Shown piece by piece: positions 41,465 through 52,704 of a stretch of DNA of 64,000 bases. Both the position numbers and the translations under genes were made by a program. The stretch comes from Bacteroidales bacterium (GTDB lineage: Bacteria; Bacteroidota; Bacteroidia; Bacteroidales; UBA932): positions 47,097 through 111,096 of the forward strand of contig JAMPAT010000002.1 in the NCBI GenBank assembly GCA_023667095.1, in the 5' to 3' direction. The notes under the pieces were generated by a model. That model ran no database searches. It saw only the letters and a list, made by a program, of their open reading frames with translations, and was not told the origin of the DNA. Position 1 is the first letter of the stretch; each line of letters starts with the position of its first letter.

Positions 41465-42568
41465 TCAGTTCTTTGACGCTATTGTATAGACAAATCCAAA
41501 TGAAAGTGACTCCTTGAACTGTACCCTCTGGTGAGTATCTTCTATCCCGCCATGCTGCTTACATTTTTCCTTATATATCATGACTTTATCATCATATATA
41601 AGGTTGGTCGTGAACATCAGGGAGAAATATTTCGCCAGCTTCCACTCAATCCTGTTGTCCCAGTTGACACGGATATTCTCCGGATGGTCAAGATAGTCAG
41701 AGAAAAGCAGGATCTGCGAGGTGTACTTGAAGTTGTCATTGACATTCACCTTTATGTCAACCTTCAACTGGGCACCGAACTCAAAGTTTGACGAACGGTA
41801 GGCATTGCCTGAGGCAAGCAGTTCCTCTGATGCGGCAGTTCCACCCTTGTTCTCATCATACACCTTCTTAAGCTTCATACTATATGATTTCCTCAATATA
41901 GGGTTGTCCACAATAACGAATCCTCCTGTAAGAGGTGCAAAATTGATAGACAGCCATTTCAAAGGCGTATAATTGATACCGAGCGCCAAGTTTGTATAGG
42001 CAGGTGAGACAAGTCCTGACTTCAATGTCCTTGCTGCCCTCCATTCCTTCCTTCCTGCCTCCCAGTCTTCAGGGGCATCTGCAGGCTTGGACGGAGTCGG
42101 ATAGTTCCACGTGTTTGAAAACTGCGACTTGAAGCTGTACTCTGCCGACATGAAAAGGTTCTTTGCCACATTATAGCCGAACTTGCTCTCCAGATATATG
42201 CGGTCATCGCTCTTCTGCAGCACAGGCTTGTCCGCAGAATAAAGGAATCCATAGTCAAGCTGAAGCCTGTTGGTCCAGGAAATGTTTTCCTTCTTATAGT
42301 TGGCGTTTCCATCGATGAATGCCTTCAATGAATACGTATTGTATCCTCCGGCAGCCCAGTTGTTCAGGAAAGTCTGTCCGAAGTCAAGCTTTGTTGACAG
42401 GGAGTTCTTCCAGTATTTGGGTTTTGGAGCGATTGTCTCAGTTGCAGCAGGTGCATCATTGATAGCCTGTGCAACATCAGCGGCTGCCTTCTGAGCATCA
42501 GTGAGTTCCTGGGCCGAAACCGCAAGAGCTGCAGAAAGCAATGGGATGACAAGAAATAATCGTTTCAT
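41465..42568 (-). CDS. DUF3078-like outer-membrane beta-barrel protein
   Basis: Start placed at MKRLFLVIPLLSAALAVSAQ (signal peptide) rather than the track's upstream Met; alternating amphipathic beta-strands; C-terminal TIASKN. Confidence 0.5.
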   Translation of the reverse strand: MKRLFLVIPLLSAALAVSAQELTDAQKAAADVAQAINDAPAATETIAPKPKYWKNSLSTKLDFGQTFLNNWAAGGYNTYSLKAFIDGNANYKKENISWTNRLQLDYGFLYSADKPVLQKSDDRIYLESKFGYNVAKNLFMSAEYSFKSQFSNTWNYPTPSKPADAPEDWEAGRKEWRAARTLKSGLVSPAYTNLALGINYTPLKWLSINFAPLTGGFVIVDNPILRKSYSMKLKKVYDENKGGTAASEELLASGNAYRSSNFEFGAQLKVDIKVNVNDNFKYTSQILLFSDYLDHPENIRVNWDNRIEWKLAKYFSLMFTTNLIYDDKVMIYKEKCKQHGGIEDTHQRVQFKESLSFGFVYTIASKN

Positions 42569-42590
42569 ATATTCATTTTTTAAACAACTT

Positions 42591-44072
42591 CTAATACGAC
42601 CTGGCGAAAAGCACCCTGCGGTGTGACGGCTTGCCGCTGTATATACAGGTTCCCTCCTCCTCACAGACTGCACTGTCGATAGGGATGCACCTTATTGTAG
42701 CCTTGGTCTCCTCCTTTATCCTCTCCTCAGTCTCTGGAGTTCCATCCCAATGGCAGAGCAGGAATCCTCCCTCCTCTATCTTCACCTTGAAATCCTCCCA
42801 TGTATCAACCTTCACGATATGCCCATCGCGAAATTTCAATGCCTTGGCATATATATTCTCCTGGATTTCATCCAGCAGGTCCTCGATTCTCTTCCCAAGT
42901 CCCTCGACAGGTGCAGAAATCTTTTCAAGGGTATCACGGCGCGCAATCTCAACTGTACCGTTCGCAAGGTCGCGTGCACCGACAGCAAGGCGCACAGGAA
43001 CACCCTTAAGCTCCCATTCTGCAAACTTGAAGCCAGGACGGAGAGTGTCACGGTCATCTATCTTCACACTGTGTCCGTGTGCCTCCAGTTCCTTCTTGAG
43101 TTCAGACATCTTTTCGAAGATGGCCCTGTTCCCTTCCTCGTCCTTTCCCACGATAGGCACAATAACAACCTGGATAGGTGCAAGTGCCGGAGGAAGTACA
43201 AGCCCGTTGTCATCTCCATGGGCCATGATAAGTGCACCCATAAGCCTTGTGGATACGCCCCATGATGTCGCCCATACATATTCCTGCTTTCCTTCCTTGT
43301 TAGTAAACTGTACATCGAAGGCCTTTGCAAAATTCTGTCCCAGGAAATGCGATGTTCCTGCCTGCAGGGCCTTTCCGTCCTGCATCATGGCTTCAATTGT
43401 GAGCGTATCAAGCGCACCTGCAAACCTCTCGTTCGGGCTCTTGTGGCCCACGACAACAGGCATGGCCATATACTTGCGCGCAAAGTCAGCATATACATTG
43501 ACCATCTTTGTAGCCTCATCTATAGCCTCCTGCTGTGTCGCATGTGCTGTATGTCCCTCCTGCCAGAGGAATTCTGCAGTACGGAGAAAAAGCCTTGTAC
43601 GCATCTCCCAGCGCACAACGTTTGCCCACTGGTTGCACAGGATAGGCAGGTCCCTCCATGAAGTTATCCAGTTCTTGTATGTATTCCAGATGATTGTCTC
43701 AGAAGTAGGGCGTACTACAAGCTCCTCCTCAAGCTTTGCAGACGGGTCCACGACAACTCCTGGGCCGTCAGGATTGGCCATAAGCCTATGGTGCGTAACC
43801 ACAGCGCACTCCTTTGCGAATCCCTCCACATGCTCTGCCTCACGGCTAAGGAAAGACTTCGGGATAAAAAGCGGGAAATACGCATTCACATGACCGGTTT
43901 CCTTGAACATCTTGTCAAGGACCTCATGCATCTTCTCCCATATTGCATATCCGTACGGTTTGATTACCATACATCCCCTGACTGCAGAACGCTCAGCAAG
44001 GTCAGCCTTTACAACAAGATTATCATACCACTGGGAATAGTTGTCTGCCCTTTTTGTTACTTCTTTTGCCAT
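42591..44072 (-). CDS. proS: proline--tRNA ligase (class II, archaeal/eukaryote-like ProRS as usual in Bacteroidota)
   Basis: Start placed at [16 protein letters not shown]; class-II motifs and C-terminal Zn/anticodon-binding extension. The track's 44123 start adds 17 implausible residues. Confidence 0.9.
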
Positions 44073-44240
44073 CTCGTCTTTGTTTTTAGCATATTTATTT
44101 TTACATTGTGCCCAAATTTGCATCTATACATAGGGTATAGTAATTGCAGGAAGGGTACATTTTTGCGCTGCGAAGGTACGAAAATATTAATTAACTTCCG
44201 CAAATGCGGAAGACTAAGTTAAAATATTGGAGGTAAAGAT

Positions 44241-45668
44241 ATGAAAAAGAGAGTTTACATCTTGTTCTCTGCTGTATTTGCACTGGCATCGTGCGGAACA
44301 TCAGCACAGTTCTCCTCATCTGATTCAAGATTCCAGGACGGCATATACGCCAGGACAGGCAATACATCTGCAAAGGACATAAAGAAAGCTTCCAGCACAG
44401 ACATGCAGGAAGTTGACGAACTTGTTGCCCAGACCAGGAGTTCAGAGATATATCTCCTTGGCGATGAGCCCAAGACTGTTGTAATCCCGGAAAGCAAGAG
44501 TGCCAAAGTCAAGTTCAGCAACAATGCAGGCGCAAGCGTCACCATTGAGGATACACCGGACTTCACAGTATACTTCAACAGCACTCCGTCCATCTACGTA
44601 TCTACAGCCTGGTCCCCATGGTACTACAATAGCTATTGGGGATACAGTTCATGGTACAGCCCATGGAGATATAGCGCATGGTACTACAACTCATGGAGAT
44701 ATGACCCATGGTACTGGGGCTACGGATATTACGACCCTTGGCGTTGGGACCCTTGGTATCACGATCCATGGTATTGGCACGGTCACTATGGATGCTACGG
44801 ACATTACGGTTGGCATGACCCATGGCATCATCACCACATACCGTCACATCCAGGACCTGTTGTCGGCGGAGGACGCCCTGGACGGGATATATATTACGGT
44901 CACCGTGGCAACAATGCTCCAGGAGTCTCCAGAAGCACTTCAAGGGGAATTTCGGCATCCACATCAAGACAGTCATCAGCCGTGGCATCCAGGTCAGGCA
45001 GCACATCAAGGAGTTCATCAACAAGTTCAAGGGCTTCCGTATCAGGCAGCACATCGTCAAGATCTGCCGGCTCAAGGCTGACAGCATCAGTGCCACGCAG
45101 CTCCTCTACATCAAGGGGAACTTCCACAGGCACAGGGTCTTCATATTCAAGGACCAGTTCCCGTGGCTCTTCCAGTGCAAGAAACAGCAGTTCAGGCTAC
45201 ATGAGTTCAAGGACAACAGCCTCAGGCAGCAGCTACATCCCGAGAAGCGGGATTGCAGGCTCTGGCAGCAGCGCATCAAGGGGTAGCGCAACAGCAGGCA
45301 GTTCCAGGACTTCAACATACAGGCCTGCGACATCGACTTCCGGAACATCAAGGACAGGCAGCAGTTCTTCATACGGGACATCAAGAAGCACATCATCCTC
45401 ATACGGGACATCTACTTCGTCTGGGTCATCGACAAGCTCTTCAAGCAGAGGCACATTCACCGGAAGCAGTAGCAGCAGGTCAAGCAGCTCCAGCAGTACA
45501 TCGTCATCCCCTACATATAACAGGAGCACCTCCACAGGCACTTCAAGGAGTACCTCTTCCGGAAGCACATATTCAGGCGGCAGCAGAAGCAGCGGTGGCT
45601 CATACTCTGGTGGCGGCAGCAGCCGTAGTGGAGGTTCATCCGGAGGCGGAAGTTCCCGTTCAAGATAG
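44241..45668 (+). CDS. lipoprotein with a Trp/Tyr-rich (D)PWY-repeat segment, His cluster, and a 270-aa Ser/Thr/Arg/Gly low-complexity tail
   Basis: Lipobox ALASC. Residues about 130-200: WSPWYYNSYWGYSSWYSPWRYSAWYYNSWRYDPWYWGYGYYDPWRWDPWYHDPWYWHGHYGCYGHYGWHDPWHHHH. The remainder is RS/SS/GS-rich, ending GGSSGGGSSRSR. Co-oriented 30 nt upstream of a FadL-like gene. The same DNA is open in several other frames (low-complexity), so frame assignment rests on the lipoprotein signal and operon context. Confidence 0.5.
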   Translation: MKKRVYILFSAVFALASCGTSAQFSSSDSRFQDGIYARTGNTSAKDIKKASSTDMQEVDELVAQTRSSEIYLLGDEPKTVVIPESKSAKVKFSNNAGASVTIEDTPDFTVYFNSTPSIYVSTAWSPWYYNSYWGYSSWYSPWRYSAWYYNSWRYDPWYWGYGYYDPWRWDPWYHDPWYWHGHYGCYGHYGWHDPWHHHHIPSHPGPVVGGGRPGRDIYYGHRGNNAPGVSRSTSRGISASTSRQSSAVASRSGSTSRSSSTSSRASVSGSTSSRSAGSRLTASVPRSSSTSRGTSTGTGSSYSRTSSRGSSSARNSSSGYMSSRTTASGSSYIPRSGIAGSGSSASRGSATAGSSRTSTYRPATSTSGTSRTGSSSSYGTSRSTSSSYGTSTSSGSSTSSSSRGTFTGSSSSRSSSSSSTSSSPTYNRSTSTGTSRSTSSGSTYSGGSRSSGGSYSGGGSSRSGGSSGGGSSRSR

Positions 45669-45697
45669 AGATACAGACCCATTTAAAATAAGATACA

Positions 45698-47365
45698 ATG
45701 AAAAAGACAGCAATTACACTTCTGTTGGCAGCGGTGGCGGCAAGTGCAGGAGCACAGACGATGTATGATGCGCTGACATTCAGTGAGAATGATTACGCAG
45801 GGACGGCAAGGACACTGGCAATGGGCAATGCCTTCACTGCACTTGGAGGAGACCTTGGCTCGCTCAGCATAAATCCGGCAGGCTCTGCAGTTGCCAAATA
45901 TTCACAGATTACCGTTACCCCGGGAATGGCCATTTCGGTAAATAAAGCCAACGGGACACTGGCAGGCAATGAAGATTTCCCGTCCAGCTTCGGAAGCACA
46001 AGACGCAATACCAAAGGCAGTTTCTGGATGCCGAATATAGGCTTTACTGTCAATTTTGACACACACAGGACAAGCGGAATCAAGAATGTAAGCATCGGGG
46101 TTGTCGCCAATGTGTCCAATACATACAAGGACGGGCTATATGCCAAAGGGCTGAATACCAGGAGTTCTTTTGCAGGCGGAATGGCAACAATGGCCTACGG
46201 ATTCCATCCGGACAACCTGTCAGGAAGCGATGCATATGACCTGTACCCTGCTGACTGGCAATATATACTTGCCTATCAGTCATATATGATTTCCCCTGTT
46301 GAAGATGGTTCGACAGAATATGCAGGAGTCACGGAAAACATATACAGGGATGCAGACGGCAAGATAACGGGAATAGAGATTCCCGGGAGCCTGAACCAGA
46401 CATTCGGAAGATCTGTCAAAGGCAACAGATATGACTATCTGATCAACCTTGGGATGAACATTTCAGACTTCATCTATATCGGGGCAAACCTCGGCATAAC
46501 ATCACTGAGGTATTCAAGCGAAGAGTATTTCATAGAGACACCGGAAGAGTACTCCCTGTTCCAGACAGGTTTCCAGAAGCTAAGCCATAACAGTGTGTAC
46601 AAGGCATCAGGGACAGGTGTATACGGAAAATTCGGAATAATCGCGACCCCGTTTGGAGGACTGCGCATCGGTGCAGCTATCCAGACACCTACGGCAAACA
46701 TGATAAAGGAGACATGGTACTCAAGTGCAAGTGTCGTGGCAAACAGCCAGAACACAGGAAAGTCAGAGACACCTGAGGGGCAATATGACTACCGTCTCTC
46801 ATCCCCTATGAGATTCAATGTTGGCGCTGCATACACTTTTGGAGGCTTTGCAGCAGTGAGTGCAGACTATGAGATGTGCAACTATGGCAAGATGCGCCTT
46901 ACAGAAAGGCAGACGGCCGACAACAGCGGCTTCGATGCTGTAAATGAAGACATCAGGGATTTCATGGGCAAGTCACACATGTTCCGTGCAGGAATTGAGG
47001 TAAAGCCGGTAAGCCAGTTCGCGGTACGCGCAGGCTACGGGCTGACGACCGCACCTGACTACTGGTATTTCGATGAAGCCGGAGTCAGGACAAAACTTCC
47101 TGGATCAGATATAGCCAAGACCCATAAATATTCTTTCGGTCTCGGCTACAGCAGCCAAGGCTCGTTCTTCATGGACCTTGCTGTCACAGCAAAGAAATAT
47201 GCCAAGGAATATATAGCACCATACGTCACTGCCATGCTTGACAATAACGGACAGATCATGACAGATGAGAATGGCATTCCTGTTGCGGACTACAACACAT
47301 CTCCGGAAATCCTGAACAGGAAATGGCTCTGGACAGCGACAGTCACATTCGGATTCAGGTTCTAA
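45698..47365 (+). CDS. FadL/OmpP1/TodX-like outer-membrane channel, long form (555 aa)
   Basis: Signal peptide; N-terminal GTARTLAMGNAFTALGGDLGSLSINPAG resembles the FadL hatch signature (GxA..GGA.A..DDAS.NPAG pattern); beta-strand periodicity; C-terminal FGFRF. Confidence 0.55.
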   Translation: MKKTAITLLLAAVAASAGAQTMYDALTFSENDYAGTARTLAMGNAFTALGGDLGSLSINPAGSAVAKYSQITVTPGMAISVNKANGTLAGNEDFPSSFGSTRRNTKGSFWMPNIGFTVNFDTHRTSGIKNVSIGVVANVSNTYKDGLYAKGLNTRSSFAGGMATMAYGFHPDNLSGSDAYDLYPADWQYILAYQSYMISPVEDGSTEYAGVTENIYRDADGKITGIEIPGSLNQTFGRSVKGNRYDYLINLGMNISDFIYIGANLGITSLRYSSEEYFIETPEEYSLFQTGFQKLSHNSVYKASGTGVYGKFGIIATPFGGLRIGAAIQTPTANMIKETWYSSASVVANSQNTGKSETPEGQYDYRLSSPMRFNVGAAYTFGGFAAVSADYEMCNYGKMRLTERQTADNSGFDAVNEDIRDFMGKSHMFRAGIEVKPVSQFAVRAGYGLTTAPDYWYFDEAGVRTKLPGSDIAKTHKYSFGLGYSSQGSFFMDLAVTAKKYAKEYIAPYVTAMLDNNGQIMTDENGIPVADYNTSPEILNRKWLWTATVTFGFRF

Positions 47366-47389
47366 AGCCTTCAAGAAACAGTTCATTGA

Positions 47390-47437
47390 CATCGGGTGCT
47401 CAAAAGTAGACTTTTGGTCACCCGATGCCGTTTTCTG
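47390..47437 (+). terminator. rho-independent terminator-like hairpin (CATCGGGTG...CACCCGATG with inner AAAAG/CTTTT) followed by CCGTTTTCT
   Basis: 24 nt after the stop of the first FadL-like gene. Confidence 0.5.
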
Positions 47438-47549
47438 CGTGGACTGTCTGGCTCCAGATTCTCCTTTGCTATTCCTTGAAACTTTTGCTGAAGTCTCTAT
47501 CTGAACTTTTTGCCACCGCACAAGTTCTGTTCACGTTATCTAACAACAC

Positions 47550-49151
47550 ATGTACATGATTAAAAGGTCAATAACCATATTTCTGCTGACAACAGCTACG
47601 GCAGCAGGGGCACAGACAATGAACGATGCATTGAAATTCAGTGAATATGACTATGCCGGAAGTGCCAGGGCACAGGCTATGGGCAATGCAGTCACAGCGG
47701 TCGGTGGTGACCTCGGCACAATCGGCATCAACCCGGCAGGACTGGCTGTGGCAAACTGCATGCAGGTAGTTGCCTCAATGGCCATTGCAATACCGGTCCA
47801 TCGTGCAGAAGGAGTGAGTCCACATAATTTCGGGACTCCGACAAGATACGATGACTGTGAATTCCGGTTTCCGAACGGAGGATTCTCATATAGCATAAAT
47901 ACCAGACGGGCGAAGAAAATCAAGAATATAAGCCTTGGAATCATATGCAATGTAAACAATATGTACAAGGACAACACCAATGCAACAGGAAGCTGCCGTA
48001 GAAATTCCTTTGCAAGCGCACTTGCAGGCATGGCAACAGGCCTGAACAGAAATGTCCTTGGCGACCCCAATGCCTATGAAAGCTCCAATGGAGACTACTG
48101 GGAATATATCCTTGCCTACCAGGCCGGCATAATAAGTCCGTCTTCACAGGTTTCCAACACCTACACCAGCATCACGGAAGATGTCAGCTATGGTTCTGCT
48201 GAAACATGGCAGGACTACCATAGAACTATCTATGGAGAAAGATATGACTGCATAGTCAATGCCGGCATAAACATTTCCGACATGATATATCTTGGTGCAA
48301 ACATCGGAATCGCGGCACTTACGTATTCTGAAGTAAATACAATCACAGAACAGGCCGTTTTCCAGAGCAGTTTCAGCGAATATAGATTCCAGCAGTATTA
48401 CGATGTCACAGGAGTAGGAGTATATGGAAAATTCGGAATCATCGCCACTCCATATAAAGGTCTGAGGCTAGGTGCAGCAATCCAGACACCGACATCAAAC
48501 TCAATGAAGCAGCTCCGTTACATGACAGCAGTTAAGGACAGCAACAGTGAAATGCGGACCTATGACGCAATATGGACATACAGGCTTACGTCACCGATGA
48601 GGTTCAACATCGGTGCAGCATACACATTCGGCTCGCTCGCCATGGTCAGCGCAGACTATGAGGTATGTGACTACAGTTCAATGAAGATGACAGGCAGAAA
48701 ATACTCTAAAAATGCTGATTTCCATAATGTAAACAGTGAGATAGGCGACATGATGGGAGCCTCGCACATGGTAAGGGCAGGGATTGAAATCAATCCGATA
48801 GAGTGGTTTTCAATCAGGGCTGGATATGGATTCACCAGCAAGCCGGGATATTATCTTGACGGCAACGACAACAAGAGAAGGCTGTCATCTGTTCCAGAGG
48901 CCAATTCGCACAAATATTCATTCGGCATCGGCTACACAAACAAGGAGTTTTTTTACATAGACTTATCATTTACAGCCAGGCACTACGGCAGTGAATACAT
49001 TACTCCATACACAATGGCAAGACGCAATAGCAATGGGCAGATTGTTACGGACAACAGCGGCAGAGCCGTCCCGGACTACGATGCATCACCATGCATCTAC
49101 AACAACAAATGGCTATGGGTAGTGACATATACCCTTGGCTACAGATTCTAA
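47550..49151 (+). CDS. FadL/OmpP1/TodX-like outer-membrane channel, paralog of 45698-47365 (533 aa)
   Basis: Same architecture: GSARAQAMGNAVTAVGGDLGTIGINPAG; shared KFGIIATP and GAAIQTPT blocks; C-terminal LGYRF. Confidence 0.55.
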   Translation: MYMIKRSITIFLLTTATAAGAQTMNDALKFSEYDYAGSARAQAMGNAVTAVGGDLGTIGINPAGLAVANCMQVVASMAIAIPVHRAEGVSPHNFGTPTRYDDCEFRFPNGGFSYSINTRRAKKIKNISLGIICNVNNMYKDNTNATGSCRRNSFASALAGMATGLNRNVLGDPNAYESSNGDYWEYILAYQAGIISPSSQVSNTYTSITEDVSYGSAETWQDYHRTIYGERYDCIVNAGINISDMIYLGANIGIAALTYSEVNTITEQAVFQSSFSEYRFQQYYDVTGVGVYGKFGIIATPYKGLRLGAAIQTPTSNSMKQLRYMTAVKDSNSEMRTYDAIWTYRLTSPMRFNIGAAYTFGSLAMVSADYEVCDYSSMKMTGRKYSKNADFHNVNSEIGDMMGASHMVRAGIEINPIEWFSIRAGYGFTSKPGYYLDGNDNKRRLSSVPEANSHKYSFGIGYTNKEFFYIDLSFTARHYGSEYITPYTMARRNSNGQIVTDNSGRAVPDYDASPCIYNNKWLWVVTYTLGYRF

Positions 49152-49924: not shown

Positions 49925-50737
49925 TTATTCAATCTCTCCCTTTGCATTGGATGAATTGCCCCTGACAATCCCCCTCTTGGAACTCCTGATGAACTCAAGG
50001 ATTGTGTCACGCTCCTCGGACTGCGGGAATCCGGACTCAATCTTTGCACATGCATCACTCACATTCATGCCTCCATAATAAATCATGTCATACATGTCCT
50101 TGATGTTGCGTATCTGGTCAGAAGAAAATCCACGTCTGCGGAGTCCGACGATATTGACTCCAGCATATGAAAGAGGCTCGCGCCCGCAAAGGATATAAGG
50201 TGGTATGTCCTTGTTGATTTTTGAGCCGCCGCCAACCATTGCATGCTTTCCTATCTTTGAGAACTGGTGAGCCATTGTACCTCCGCCAAGAATCGCCCAG
50301 TCATCCACATCAGTCTCTCCTGCGATTCCGACATAGCTGACAAGTATACAGTGGCTTCCGACTGTACAGTCATGTGCCACATGGGTATATGACATGAGGA
50401 GGGTATTGCTTCCTATTTTAGTGACTCCCTTGCCGCTTGCCTTGGTACCCCTGTTGATTGTAGCGCACTCACGTATGTTCACATTGTCACCGATTTCTAC
50501 ATAAGTAACTTCACCCTCATATTTCAGGTCCTGCGGTATAGCCCCGATAACTGCTCCCGGGAACACGCTGCAGTTTTTGCCCATCTTCACATAGTTGAAG
50601 ACTGTTGCATGGGGAAGAATCTTGCATCCGTCTCCGATTTCTACGAATTCATCAATAAAGGCATACGGGCCTATTTCAATATTGTCTCCGAGCTTTGCAT
50701 TCGGATGAACTGTTGCAAGTGGGTGGATTTTATTCAT
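49925..50737 (-). CDS. lpxA: acyl-ACP--UDP-GlcNAc O-acyltransferase LpxA
   Basis: Left-handed beta-helix hexapeptide repeats, 270 aa, conserved His region MSYTHVAHDCTVG. Confidence 0.9.
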   Translation of the reverse strand: MNKIHPLATVHPNAKLGDNIEIGPYAFIDEFVEIGDGCKILPHATVFNYVKMGKNCSVFPGAVIGAIPQDLKYEGEVTYVEIGDNVNIRECATINRGTKASGKGVTKIGSNTLLMSYTHVAHDCTVGSHCILVSYVGIAGETDVDDWAILGGGTMAHQFSKIGKHAMVGGGSKINKDIPPYILCGREPLSYAGVNIVGLRRRGFSSDQIRNIKDMYDMIYYGGMNVSDACAKIESGFPQSEERDTILEFIRSSKRGIVRGNSSNAKGEIE

Positions 50738-50739
50738 AA

Positions 50740-51654
50740 CTATTTCTGTTTCAGAAGGGCACCAAGTTCCCTTGCTGCTCTCGTATTAATTGAATGTCCT
50801 GATTTGTATGCTGTTATCCTGGCCTTGAGAAAGCCTCCGGACAGCCTCAGGTCACCTATAAGGTCAAGGAGCTTGTGCCTGGCACATTCATTCGGGAACC
50901 TGAGCTGCAGATTGTTGAGATAGCCTTCGTCCGAAATGCCAAGGAAAGGTACATTGAACAGCCTGTACATATGCTCAAGCTGCGCATCAGTGACCGGATG
51001 CTCTACAATGACAATTGCATTGTCTACATCGCCTCCCTTTATAAGGTTGTTCTTGAACAGGAACTCTATCTCATGGAAAAATACAAATGTGCGGCAGATT
51101 CCGATTTCCTCCGCATACACGACCTTTGGATCCCAATGTGCGGTCTGCACGCCAAGTACCCTTGAATTGAAGTCTATCGTAAGGTCGTACGAAGGCTCAT
51201 CTGCCGGCTCTATCTTAAGGTAGGCTCCAGTCTCTTCATTCCTTATCTCGAACGGTTCCTTGATTTCAAGATACCTGCGCGGAGCATCCTGCTCTGCAAT
51301 TCCGCTCTTCCAGATTGCATCGATATACGGCTTTGCGCTGCCGTCGAGTATAGGGACCTCCACATTGTCAATCTCGACAAGGGCATTGTCAATGCCCATT
51401 CCAGTAAGTGCGGACATTATATGTTCGACAGTGATTACCGATATTCCATCTTTCGTGATTGTCGTGCTCCTTGCTGTATTTGAGACATTGTCAGCGACAG
51501 CCTCAACGATTGCATCTTCCGAAACATCTGTCCTTAAGAACCTTATACCAAAATCAACAGGAGCAGGCTTTATCGTCATCCTTGCAACCTTTCCGGTATG
51601 AAGCCCCTTTCCCTCAAAGCAGAACTCTTTCCTGACTGTATGCTGTTGTACCAT
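50740..51654 (-). CDS. lpxC: UDP-3-O-acyl-GlcNAc deacetylase LpxC (standalone 304 aa, not fused to FabZ)
   Basis: Typical LpxC length and Zn-site region HEIEFLFKNNLIKGGDVDNAIV; stop 2 nt before the lpxA ATG, so there is no room for a FabZ domain. Confidence 0.85.
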   Translation of the reverse strand: MVQQHTVRKEFCFEGKGLHTGKVARMTIKPAPVDFGIRFLRTDVSEDAIVEAVADNVSNTARSTTITKDGISVITVEHIMSALTGMGIDNALVEIDNVEVPILDGSAKPYIDAIWKSGIAEQDAPRRYLEIKEPFEIRNEETGAYLKIEPADEPSYDLTIDFNSRVLGVQTAHWDPKVVYAEEIGICRTFVFFHEIEFLFKNNLIKGGDVDNAIVIVEHPVTDAQLEHMYRLFNVPFLGISDEGYLNNLQLRFPNECARHKLLDLIGDLRLSGGFLKARITAYKSGHSINTRAARELGALLKQK

Positions 51655-51714
51655 TACTCTATTTCAATCAATCATAAACGGTCGGCAAAAATAAGTAAAA
51701 TATTTTAATATACA

Positions 51715-52704
51715 TTATTTTTTGCCGTTCTGCCTGAAAATGGTATAGCTTCGCAGATACTCCCTGTAAGGGATTGCCGGGGTTCCCATATATGCCTGCC
51801 CTGCTTCCTTAATGTTCGTCAGGAGGCCTGACTGGGCTGAGAACGAAGTGTTGTCAGGAACTGTAAGGTGACCGGCAATGCCGACCTGGCCGCCAAGCAC
51901 GCAGTGTTTCCCGATCTTCGTGGAGCCTGCAATTCCTGTCTGGGCCGCCATGACAGTGTTCTCTCCAATCTCGACATTGTGGGCAATCTGGCATAGATTG
52001 TCAATCTTCACGCCTTTACGTATGATCGTCGAGCCCATCTGCGACTTGTCTATTGTTGTATTGGCACCGATCTCCACATCATCCTCTATAATGACATTGC
52101 CGGTATGCTCTATCTTCTTATATGAGCCGTCCTCAAGCGGTGCGAACCCGAATCCGTCTGCACCTATCACTGCATTGGAATGGATAATCACATTGTCACC
52201 TATCTCCATGCCTGGATAGATCCTTACCCCAGGATAGATGATGCAATGCGAGCCTATCCTGACATTTTCACCTATATATACATGCTCATATATCTTTGTG
52301 TAGTCCCCTACCCTTGTGTTGCGCCCGACGTAGGCAAAGTCACCGACATATACCTTTTTCCCGAACTTTGTCGAGAAATATGTCTTCGAACGGAAGCCAC
52401 GGTGGCGTCTGAAAGACCTTTTCCTTTCAGTGACATAATCAAGCAGCTCAGCGACTGCTGAATAGGCATCCTCTACCCTTATCATTGTCGCTGTGACAGG
52501 CTTCTGAGGCTTGAATGTATTGTTCACAATGATTATGTCGGCCTTGCAGTCATATACATAGTGTTCATATTTCGGGTTCGCAAAAAAGCAGATGGCCCCC
52601 GGCTTGCCGCTCTCGATTCTCGCAAATGTTGTGACCTTAGCTTCCGGATTGCCGTCCACCGTGCCTTTAAGTATCTCTGCAATTTCTTTTGCCTTGAATT
52701 CCAT
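51715..52704 (-). CDS. lpxD: UDP-3-O-acylglucosamine N-acyltransferase LpxD
   Basis: 329 aa, hexapeptide repeats, N-terminal uridine-binding domain. Confidence 0.9.

Follow-up and report, generated by a model that had tools for sequence, protein, structure and literature searches.

What does a lipoprotein with a block of tryptophan and tyrosine repeats and a long, arginine-rich low-complexity tail do next to outer-membrane barrels of the FadL type? The question is raised by three consecutive open reading frames (ORFs) in a 64,000-nucleotide (nt) stretch of Bacteroidales DNA from contig JAMPAT010000002.1 (the window, to whose numbering all positions refer; features lie on the plus strand unless stated otherwise). 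These are a lipoprotein gene at 44241-45668 (475 residues), the gene for barrel 1 at 45698-47365 (555 residues) and the gene for barrel 2 at 47550-49151 (533 residues). An earlier interpretation made from the letters alone, the sequence-only reading, had placed the same three ORFs at the same positions and proposed that the lipoprotein is a surface-tethered capture device serving two tandem FadL-like channels. Our analysis leads to a different answer. The lipoprotein and the first barrel are strictly paired throughout a lineage of uncultured Bacteroidales and, judging mainly from sequence features, we suggest with a probability of about 0.45 that they constitute a lineage-wide, co-transcribed outer-membrane module, in which the barrel would dock the N-terminus of the lipoprotein and the tail would lie in the periplasm. 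Both protein families are undescribed, but the kind of system, in which a FadL-fold barrel of Bacteroidota has its own cognate lipoprotein, is already known. The sequence-only reading had been aware of no described pairing of a lipoprotein with FadL homologs; two such pairings were described in 2025, namely BamG-BamH, which belongs to the Bacteroidota β-barrel assembly machinery (BAM) complex, and BamG2-BamH2, encoded by the putative operon Bt1785-Bt1786. In the first of these, BamG, a FadL-fold barrel, docks the N-terminal tail of the lipoprotein BamH (PMC12578637, PMC12611786).

A conserved gene pair

Species-representative genomes scanned with the barrel alone yielded 391 relatives, of which the best 80 loci were analysed. 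At 78 of these 80 loci the barrel gene is preceded, at a distance of 12-133 nt, by a full-length ORF on the same strand that has the W/Y block, the S/T/R/G tail and the RR end, and in most cases also a lipobox; the remaining two loci are interrupted by contig ends. Look-ups seeded with the lipoprotein or with distant barrels returned the same pair. Altogether, the pair was found at every related locus examined, about 95 in number, and it persists in a clade in which the identity of the barrel has dropped to 35% and that of the lipoprotein to 22%. The synteny check suggested along with the capture idea thus gave a positive result for the lipoprotein and the first barrel. Every one of these loci comes from uncultured Bacteroidales, chiefly Candidatus Cryptobacteroides and its relatives, with a few labels that are obviously mis-binned.

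The neighbourhood of the pair is constant, with tilS-DUF3078-proS on the minus strand on one side and WbqC-lpxA-(fabZ)-lpxC-lpxD, also on the minus strand, on the other, and the window conforms to this arrangement. The pair, with a gap of 29 nt between its two genes in the window, is a discrete plus-strand unit flanked by minus-strand housekeeping genes. Moreover, evolutionary distances of the N-terminal part of the lipoprotein and of the barrel are closely correlated (r 0.88; partial r 0.78 given ProS), compared to correlations of 0.50-0.62 for the neighbours DUF3078, WbqC and LpxA. Both proteins of the pair diverge fast, their mean p-distances being 0.47 and 0.56 versus 0.13 for ProS. The discrete transcription unit and the distance correlation are supportive of a pairing that exceeds mere conservation of gene order.

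Fold and family of the barrels

In a fold search, structures of the FadL family were the sole matches. The values were 29.6 for P. gingivalis BamG, 29.5 for both TodX and P. aeruginosa FadL, 29.0 for F. johnsoniae BamG, 28.6 for B. thetaiotaomicron BamG and 26.1 for PorV. In the predicted model the barrel has 14 strands, the N-terminal hatch is situated within the lumen and, in barrel 1, the loops are enlarged. As far as models can tell, both barrels have the FadL fold, in agreement with their initial description as FadL-like.

At the sequence level, the affiliation points elsewhere. Neither barrel has a match in Pfam, with no hit to Toluene_X (PF03349) at E≤1, and none of the 54 analysed members of the barrel family matches Toluene_X at E≤0.1. 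The family profile retrieved nothing from all PDB chains at E≤10, and its hhalign comparison with E. coli FadL gave a non-significant probability of 7%. The nearest curated family is NCBIfam PorV/PorQ (NF033709), to which the two barrels score 26.2 and 36.0 bits, below the 90-bit cut-off; sub-threshold matches of this kind are present in 34 of the 54 family members. BamG (NF053685) is matched weakly (E 3.9e-4) by two of the 54, and barrel 2 shows a weak N-terminal match to FilD from NCBIfam. PorV-type barrels bind proteins, and with 34 members resembling PorV/PorQ, two resembling BamG and none resembling Toluene_X, sequence similarity leans towards protein-binding barrels. The sequence-only reading had itself foreseen that an assignment to a PorV family would weaken the capture idea, and the sub-threshold PorV/PorQ similarity does so. 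The barrel family is large, with 5725 clusters of 50% identity at E≤1e-3, and the sole name in it beyond 'hypothetical protein' is an automatic UniRef label, OMPP1/FadL/TodX, carried by one member.

The best-conserved part of the barrel is the hatch (residues 20-69, 45755-45904). Twenty-four of the 80 invariant positions fall within residues 24-70, and N59-P60-A61, part of an NPAG motif at residues 59-62, is invariant in all 54 sequences. In the hhalign alignment, non-significant overall, this NPA is aligned with the NPA of E. coli FadL; by the same alignment, the highly conserved segment between the mature N-terminus and the motif measures 39 residues versus 32 in FadL (+7). For comparison, FadL-type transporters have a lateral opening (S3 kink), and in BamG a conserved N-terminal extension of about 10-12 residues leaves through the lateral opening. 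On balance, the modelled structures would fit a transporter and a protein-docking barrel of the BamG or PorV kind alike.

Could the barrel then simply be an ordinary FadL-type channel, with the lipoprotein acting as a periplasm-facing acceptor or chaperone, or merely being co-expressed without forming a stable complex? We consider this doubtful, although the FadL fold, the hatch as the most conserved region and the UniRef label of a single family member all speak for it, and the missing surface-export signal of the lipoprotein (see below) would fit a periplasmic lipoprotein. What points instead to a direct partnership between two proteins is that the pairing is strict, that the two co-vary and that the segment following the lipid cysteine is conserved. 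In addition, the sequence profile of the barrel reaches neither FadL nor any PDB chain. The barrel also differs from FadL/TodX, to which it is 9-16% identical, in its large loop insertions and its obligatory lipoprotein partner; a dedicated lipoprotein partner is not known for canonical FadL/TodX genes.

The second barrel

The two tandem channels of the original proposal do not hold up as a system. Barrel 2 is most closely related to barrel 1 (47% identity) and to barrel 1 orthologs (45%), with about 41% identity to the rest of the family, and it retains all family-invariant residues. None of the 80 barrel-seeded genome loci has a second barrel, every locus other than that of the window featuring a single one. 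In two sister-strain assemblies (GCA_023664195.1 and GCA_023664515.1, 98.8% identical to the window in this region) barrel 2 is split into ORFs of 232 and 289 residues (loci L098, 6859-8453, and L099, 2869-4463) by a deletion of one base pair at window position 48222, where CCATAGAAC becomes CCAT-GAAC outside any homopolymer run. The single barrel elsewhere and the frameshift in the sister strains therefore put barrel 2 outside any conserved two-channel system. Judging by its sequence, this lineage-specific paralog is a young, fast-diverging and apparently dispensable duplicate that is not part of the core module.

Barrel 2 is separated from barrel 1 by a spacer of 184 nt. A hairpin at 47390-47427, which begins 24 nt past the stop codon of barrel 1 (−31.9 kcal/mol, z −4.1), is a possible terminator or attenuator ahead of barrel 2. 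The U tract after the hairpin is weak, which accounts for the failure of a simple terminator scan to report it; otherwise, sigma-70 and terminator scans were uninformative. Of the separate terminator and promoter once attributed to barrel 2, the strong hairpin with its weak U tract stands and the promoter could not be verified.

Architecture and coding status of the lipoprotein

The lipoprotein begins with a signal peptide whose lipobox, MKKRVYILFSAVFALAS, precedes the lipid cysteine at residue 18 (FALAS-C18). Together with the signal peptide, a conserved N-terminal module occupies 44241-44570; it consists of a CGT..RFQDGIY segment, a helix at about residues 44-67 and a β-hairpin at residues 87-103, and is the proposed docking part. 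An aromatic/His block of 79 residues (122-200, 44604-44840) contains 16 W, 18 Y and 9 H in DPW(Y) repeats (DPW five times, PWY four times, SWY once) and terminates in GWHDPWHHHH. The sequence-only reading had described this block correctly, with counts of about 20 W and 20 Y that were slightly high. The remainder (44841-45665) is a Gly/Pro linker and a polycationic Ser/Thr/Gly/Arg tail ending in GGGSSRSR. In residues 233-475, S accounts for 44%, G for 15%, T for 14% and R for 11%, these four making up 84%, with no K, D or E at all. An AlphaFold model of the full-length lipoprotein, based on 69 homologs, is confident only for the helix and the hairpin, with a predicted local distance difference test (pLDDT) score of 70-86. 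The aromatic block has no confident fold (pLDDT about 41-44), pLDDT stays below 50 beyond residue 110, and the tail is predicted to be non-globular, as its earlier description as disordered implied.

Searches of Pfam, NCBIfam and PDB with the lipoprotein gave no match, and no Pfam or NCBIfam domain was detected in 69 of its homologs either. A single-sequence search identified 24 homologs and a profile search 215, none with a name beyond 'hypothetical', so the family is devoid of any annotation; the literature searched on Cryptobacteroides biology and on disordered Bacteroides lipoproteins rich in W/Y produced nothing relevant. The homologs share a common architecture: a lipobox, CG(T/S)...(R)FQDGIY, the helix and hairpin, a W/Y block usually followed by a His run, and an S/T/G/R tail that ends in RR. 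Among 86 distinct homologs, W, Y and F account on average for 43% of the aromatic block, and the mean tail contains 28.9 R, 1.1 K, 2.1 D and 0.7 E, has four Y-x-R motifs and, in nearly all cases, an RR-type C-terminus, its Tyr and Arg residues being regularly spaced. In the N-terminal module, C18, G19, D33, G34 and Y36 vary little or not at all, and the lipid cysteine is followed by the consensus G-T-x-A-Q-Y-A-S. Such conservation of post-cysteine residues across the homologs is unusual for a mere tether.

The tail, despite its low complexity, contains conserved islands (GRDIYYGHRGNN, RLTASVPRSSS, SSYIPRSGIAGS, TYRP and YSGGSRSSGGSYSG). Compared with the closest full-length relative (L012), it differs at 95, 70 and 147 first, second and third codon positions, respectively, and 83 of its codons are changed synonymously. 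The conserved islands and the bias towards synonymous sites show, at the level of sequence comparison, that the tail is under purifying selection. In a distant clade the repeat PGYW replaces DPWY and the composition is unchanged; therefore, selection acts on composition and a few short motifs. Tandem Repeats Finder detected only short repeats of at most 3.5 copies in the tail DNA, and in a sister strain with 98.8% DNA identity the tail carries one substitution and no indels. The idea of a slippage-prone, rapidly evolving tail has to be given up accordingly.

These data also bear on whether the lipoprotein ORF might be an artefact of low-complexity DNA that is open in several frames. Four alternative frames of the tail have only 2, 4, 2 and 4 stops, with longest open stretches of 101-154 codons, and the exact 475-residue sequence is missing from a collection of 15 billion proteins. 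The near-open frames are, however, a consequence of AGC/TCA/ACA/GGC codon usage, and the fifth frame has 35 stops, so that the tail 'open in five frames' is loosely right for four of them and wrong for the fifth. The third-position substitution bias and the 83 synonymously changed tail codons, the in-frame architecture of 86 distinct homologs that ends just ahead of the barrel gene, and a 475-residue gene called in a sister metagenome-assembled genome (MAG), identical at 471 of 475 positions (99%), all speak for a genuine coding frame, as initially assumed, and for practical purposes refute the artefact. In the same protein collection, the exact 533-residue barrel 2 was likewise not found and the exact barrel 1 was (MCM1501359.1, from MAG 'NC115'); in the source assembly, the lipoprotein and barrel 2 may have been given other gene calls or no annotation.

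Topology of the lipoprotein

On which side of the outer membrane would the lipoprotein reside? By a published criterion, Bacteroidota surface lipoproteins carry two or more acidic residues no further than six residues from the lipid cysteine (PMC12578637). None of the 83 lipoprotein homologs has this export signal; in fact, all 83 lack any acidic residue in the six positions after the cysteine. The lipobox is found in 83 of the homologs examined, and five homologs have no cysteine. The latter, represented by the upstream ORFs of L001/L002, L013, L028 and L046 (for example, ...LYSYG... and ...AASFTDALA-QQ...), resemble signal-peptidase I substrates that follow the Bacteroidota Gln-after-cleavage rule. 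Since a few orthologs do without the lipobox cysteine, lipidation is not strictly required in this family. Taken together, sequence features suggest that the non-globular polycationic region of the lipoprotein probably faces the periplasm.

With the export signal missing, the main support for a surface 'sponge' is gone. This explanation holds that the lipoprotein is displayed on the cell surface, where its aromatic block captures fatty acids, bile acids or polyphenols and passes them to the FadL channel or channels for lateral diffusion into the outer membrane. The FadL fold, the conserved hatch and the alignment of its NPA with that of E. coli FadL are in keeping with such a role, as is the fast evolution of barrel and lipoprotein, common among surface proteins, and a block made up of about 45% W/Y/F, with His in addition, would be able to bind ligands that are aromatic or hydrophobic. 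However, besides the export signal being absent from all 83 homologs and some homologs not being lipidated, the barrels have no similarity to Toluene_X and are closest in sequence to PorV/PorQ, the second channel is apparently dispensable and no catabolic or fatty-acid genes are found near the locus. We regard surface tethering as unsupported by these observations and capture from the surface as unlikely.

A proposed docking module

The lipoprotein and the barrel probably form a complex. According to the reading that we favour, the loop-expanded FadL-fold barrel and its cognate, mostly non-globular lipoprotein would associate stably, with the barrel docking the lipidated N-terminal segment (CGT..RFQDGIY, the helix and the hairpin) much as the FadL-fold BamG does with the N-terminal tail of BamH and as barrels of the PorV/PorQ type do with their protein partners. 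The aromatic/His block might then be placed at the interface with the barrel or the membrane, and the non-globular remainder would be the working part of the protein. Its tail of about 250 residues, with a net charge of about +27 to +31 provided by Arg without Lys, would extend into the periplasm and bind polyanions (peptidoglycan, anionic lipid or lipopolysaccharide head groups) as a tether or scaffold.

By analogy, the pair appears to work most like BamG-BamH or the PorV-partner systems, while being a member of none. BamG, at 390-406 residues, is about 150 residues shorter than barrel 1 (555 residues) and has no significant sequence similarity to it, PDB chains 9hj3_F, 9hjm_F and 9n2d_B giving no sequence match. 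BamH is a folded, arch-shaped surface lipoprotein with an acidic signal and is unrelated to the window lipoprotein, which is mostly non-globular and lacks the signal; furthermore, BamG is tied to BAM, whereas our pair has no known link to BamA. As for PorV and PorQ, the shuttle and attachment barrels of the T9SS (type IX secretion system), the window barrels score far below the 90-bit cut-off of that family. Cargo of PorV/PorQ has a T9SS C-terminal domain, which Pfam and NCBIfam detect neither in the window lipoprotein nor in its 69 homologs, and the genomic context of the pair is proS/lpx rather than T9SS genes.

The likeness to these secretion barrels nevertheless raises the possibility that the barrel is an export or anchoring partner of the PorP/SprF or PorV kind, through which the lipoprotein reaches the surface without the usual signal and forms an adhesive or gel-like coat that would bind mucin glycans, capsule, DNA or other anionic polymers. 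The sub-threshold similarity to PorV, PorQ and PorV2 fits this idea, and so do the fast divergence of both proteins, the composition of Tyr/Arg 'stickers' and Ser/Gly 'spacers', and the order of the genes, cargo followed by barrel, as in pairs of type-B CTD (C-terminal domain) proteins and PorP-like barrels (PMC9143113). It is rendered improbable by the lack of a T9SS C-terminal domain or other known secretion signal in the lipoprotein (Pfam and NCBIfam), by the missing acidic export signal and by the hatch-filled lumen of the FadL fold, which is not known as a conduit for proteins.

Several points also weigh against the docking module that we prefer. A conserved hatch with an NPA motif is expected of a working FadL-type channel as well. 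The pair was not found outside the single proS/lpx neighbourhood, at about 95 loci, and part of the synteny signal is for this reason lineage-wide conservation of gene order. The correlation of distances may be inflated because both proteins of the pair evolve fast. From the missing export signal a periplasmic location is predicted rather than proved and, finally, the evidence for polyanion binding by the tail is its composition.

Leader and translation of the lipoprotein gene

Three elements can be read in the 5′ leader of the lipoprotein gene (44170-44240): at 44170-44182 the conserved motif GCGAAGGTACGAA, at 44195-44212 a perfect palindrome, CTTCCGC-AAAT-GCGGAAG, and at 44229-44233, 7 nt upstream of the ATG, the Shine-Dalgarno (SD) sequence GGAGG. 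Of 83 homologous leaders, 48 carry the motif GCRAAGRTAYRAA, for the most part at positions −38 to −43 relative to the ATG. In the window it sits at −71 because the palindrome intervenes between the motif and the SD; the palindrome is lineage-specific, being absent even from the closest relative (L012). An Rfam scan of the whole window returned no RNA families, so no known riboswitch accounts for the conserved leader. Just 6 of the 83 homologous leaders contain TAnnTTTG, the Bacteroides −7 motif.

Among 83 distinct lipoprotein leaders, 76 have a strong SD, GGAGG or AGGAG, at a distance of 4-18 nt upstream of the ATG; the 34 other long genes of the window all lack it. Bacteroidia ribosomes reportedly do not respond to SD sequences, and within this class a strong SD is known mainly from rpsU, which is preferentially translated by ribosomes lacking bS21 (PMC7797042, PMC9976891, PMC13000453). 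For that very reason, an envelope gene would not be expected to have a conserved SD. The lipoprotein gene would join the very few Bacteroidia genes not encoding ribosomal proteins that have a strong SD, and is a candidate target of 'specialised' bS21-lacking ribosomes.

The composition of the lipoprotein, combined with this unusual leader, allows one further reading, which we find rather improbable. The protein could be an envelope-anchored 'sticker-spacer' lipoprotein whose W/Y/H block and Tyr/Arg-in-Ser/Gly tail assemble, within the periplasm or at the cell surface, into a condensate, a gel or an adhesive layer, with the barrel nucleating and positioning the protein and with synthesis gated by rare SD-dependent translation. 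FUS-like low-complexity domains have Tyr/Arg stickers in a Ser/Gly background, and the tail resembles them in its S/G/T spacers and regular Tyr and Arg, with the W/Y/H block ahead. However, the resemblance to these eukaryotic domains and to His/Gly/Tyr-rich structural proteins is compositional only, with no homology, and ours is a lipoprotein of the bacterial envelope.

Neighbouring genes

Two observations concern the genes around the pair. The gene for a DUF3078 outer-membrane protein (41465-42673, minus strand) lies between tilS and proS at every related locus. Its listed GTG start overlaps proS by 83 nt, and the true start is likely the internal MKRLFLVIPLL, about 35 codons downstream. On the other side (49925-52704), lpxA is directly followed by a stand-alone lpxC of 304 residues with no FabZ part. 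In the distant clade (L003, L095 and L097 were compared), a separate FabA/FabZ-like gene is located between lpxA and lpxC.

Implications

FadL-fold barrels of Bacteroidota are emerging not just as lipid channels but as platforms for docking proteins, as exemplified by PorV, PorQ and BamG, and the pair described here would represent a third, unannotated type of such docking barrel. It is a core-genome feature of an abundant, uncultured gut lineage found in poultry, ruminants, horses, mice and humans. Should both the complex and the proposed topology be true, the pair would provide a manageable example in which a disordered polycationic protein works in the bacterial envelope.

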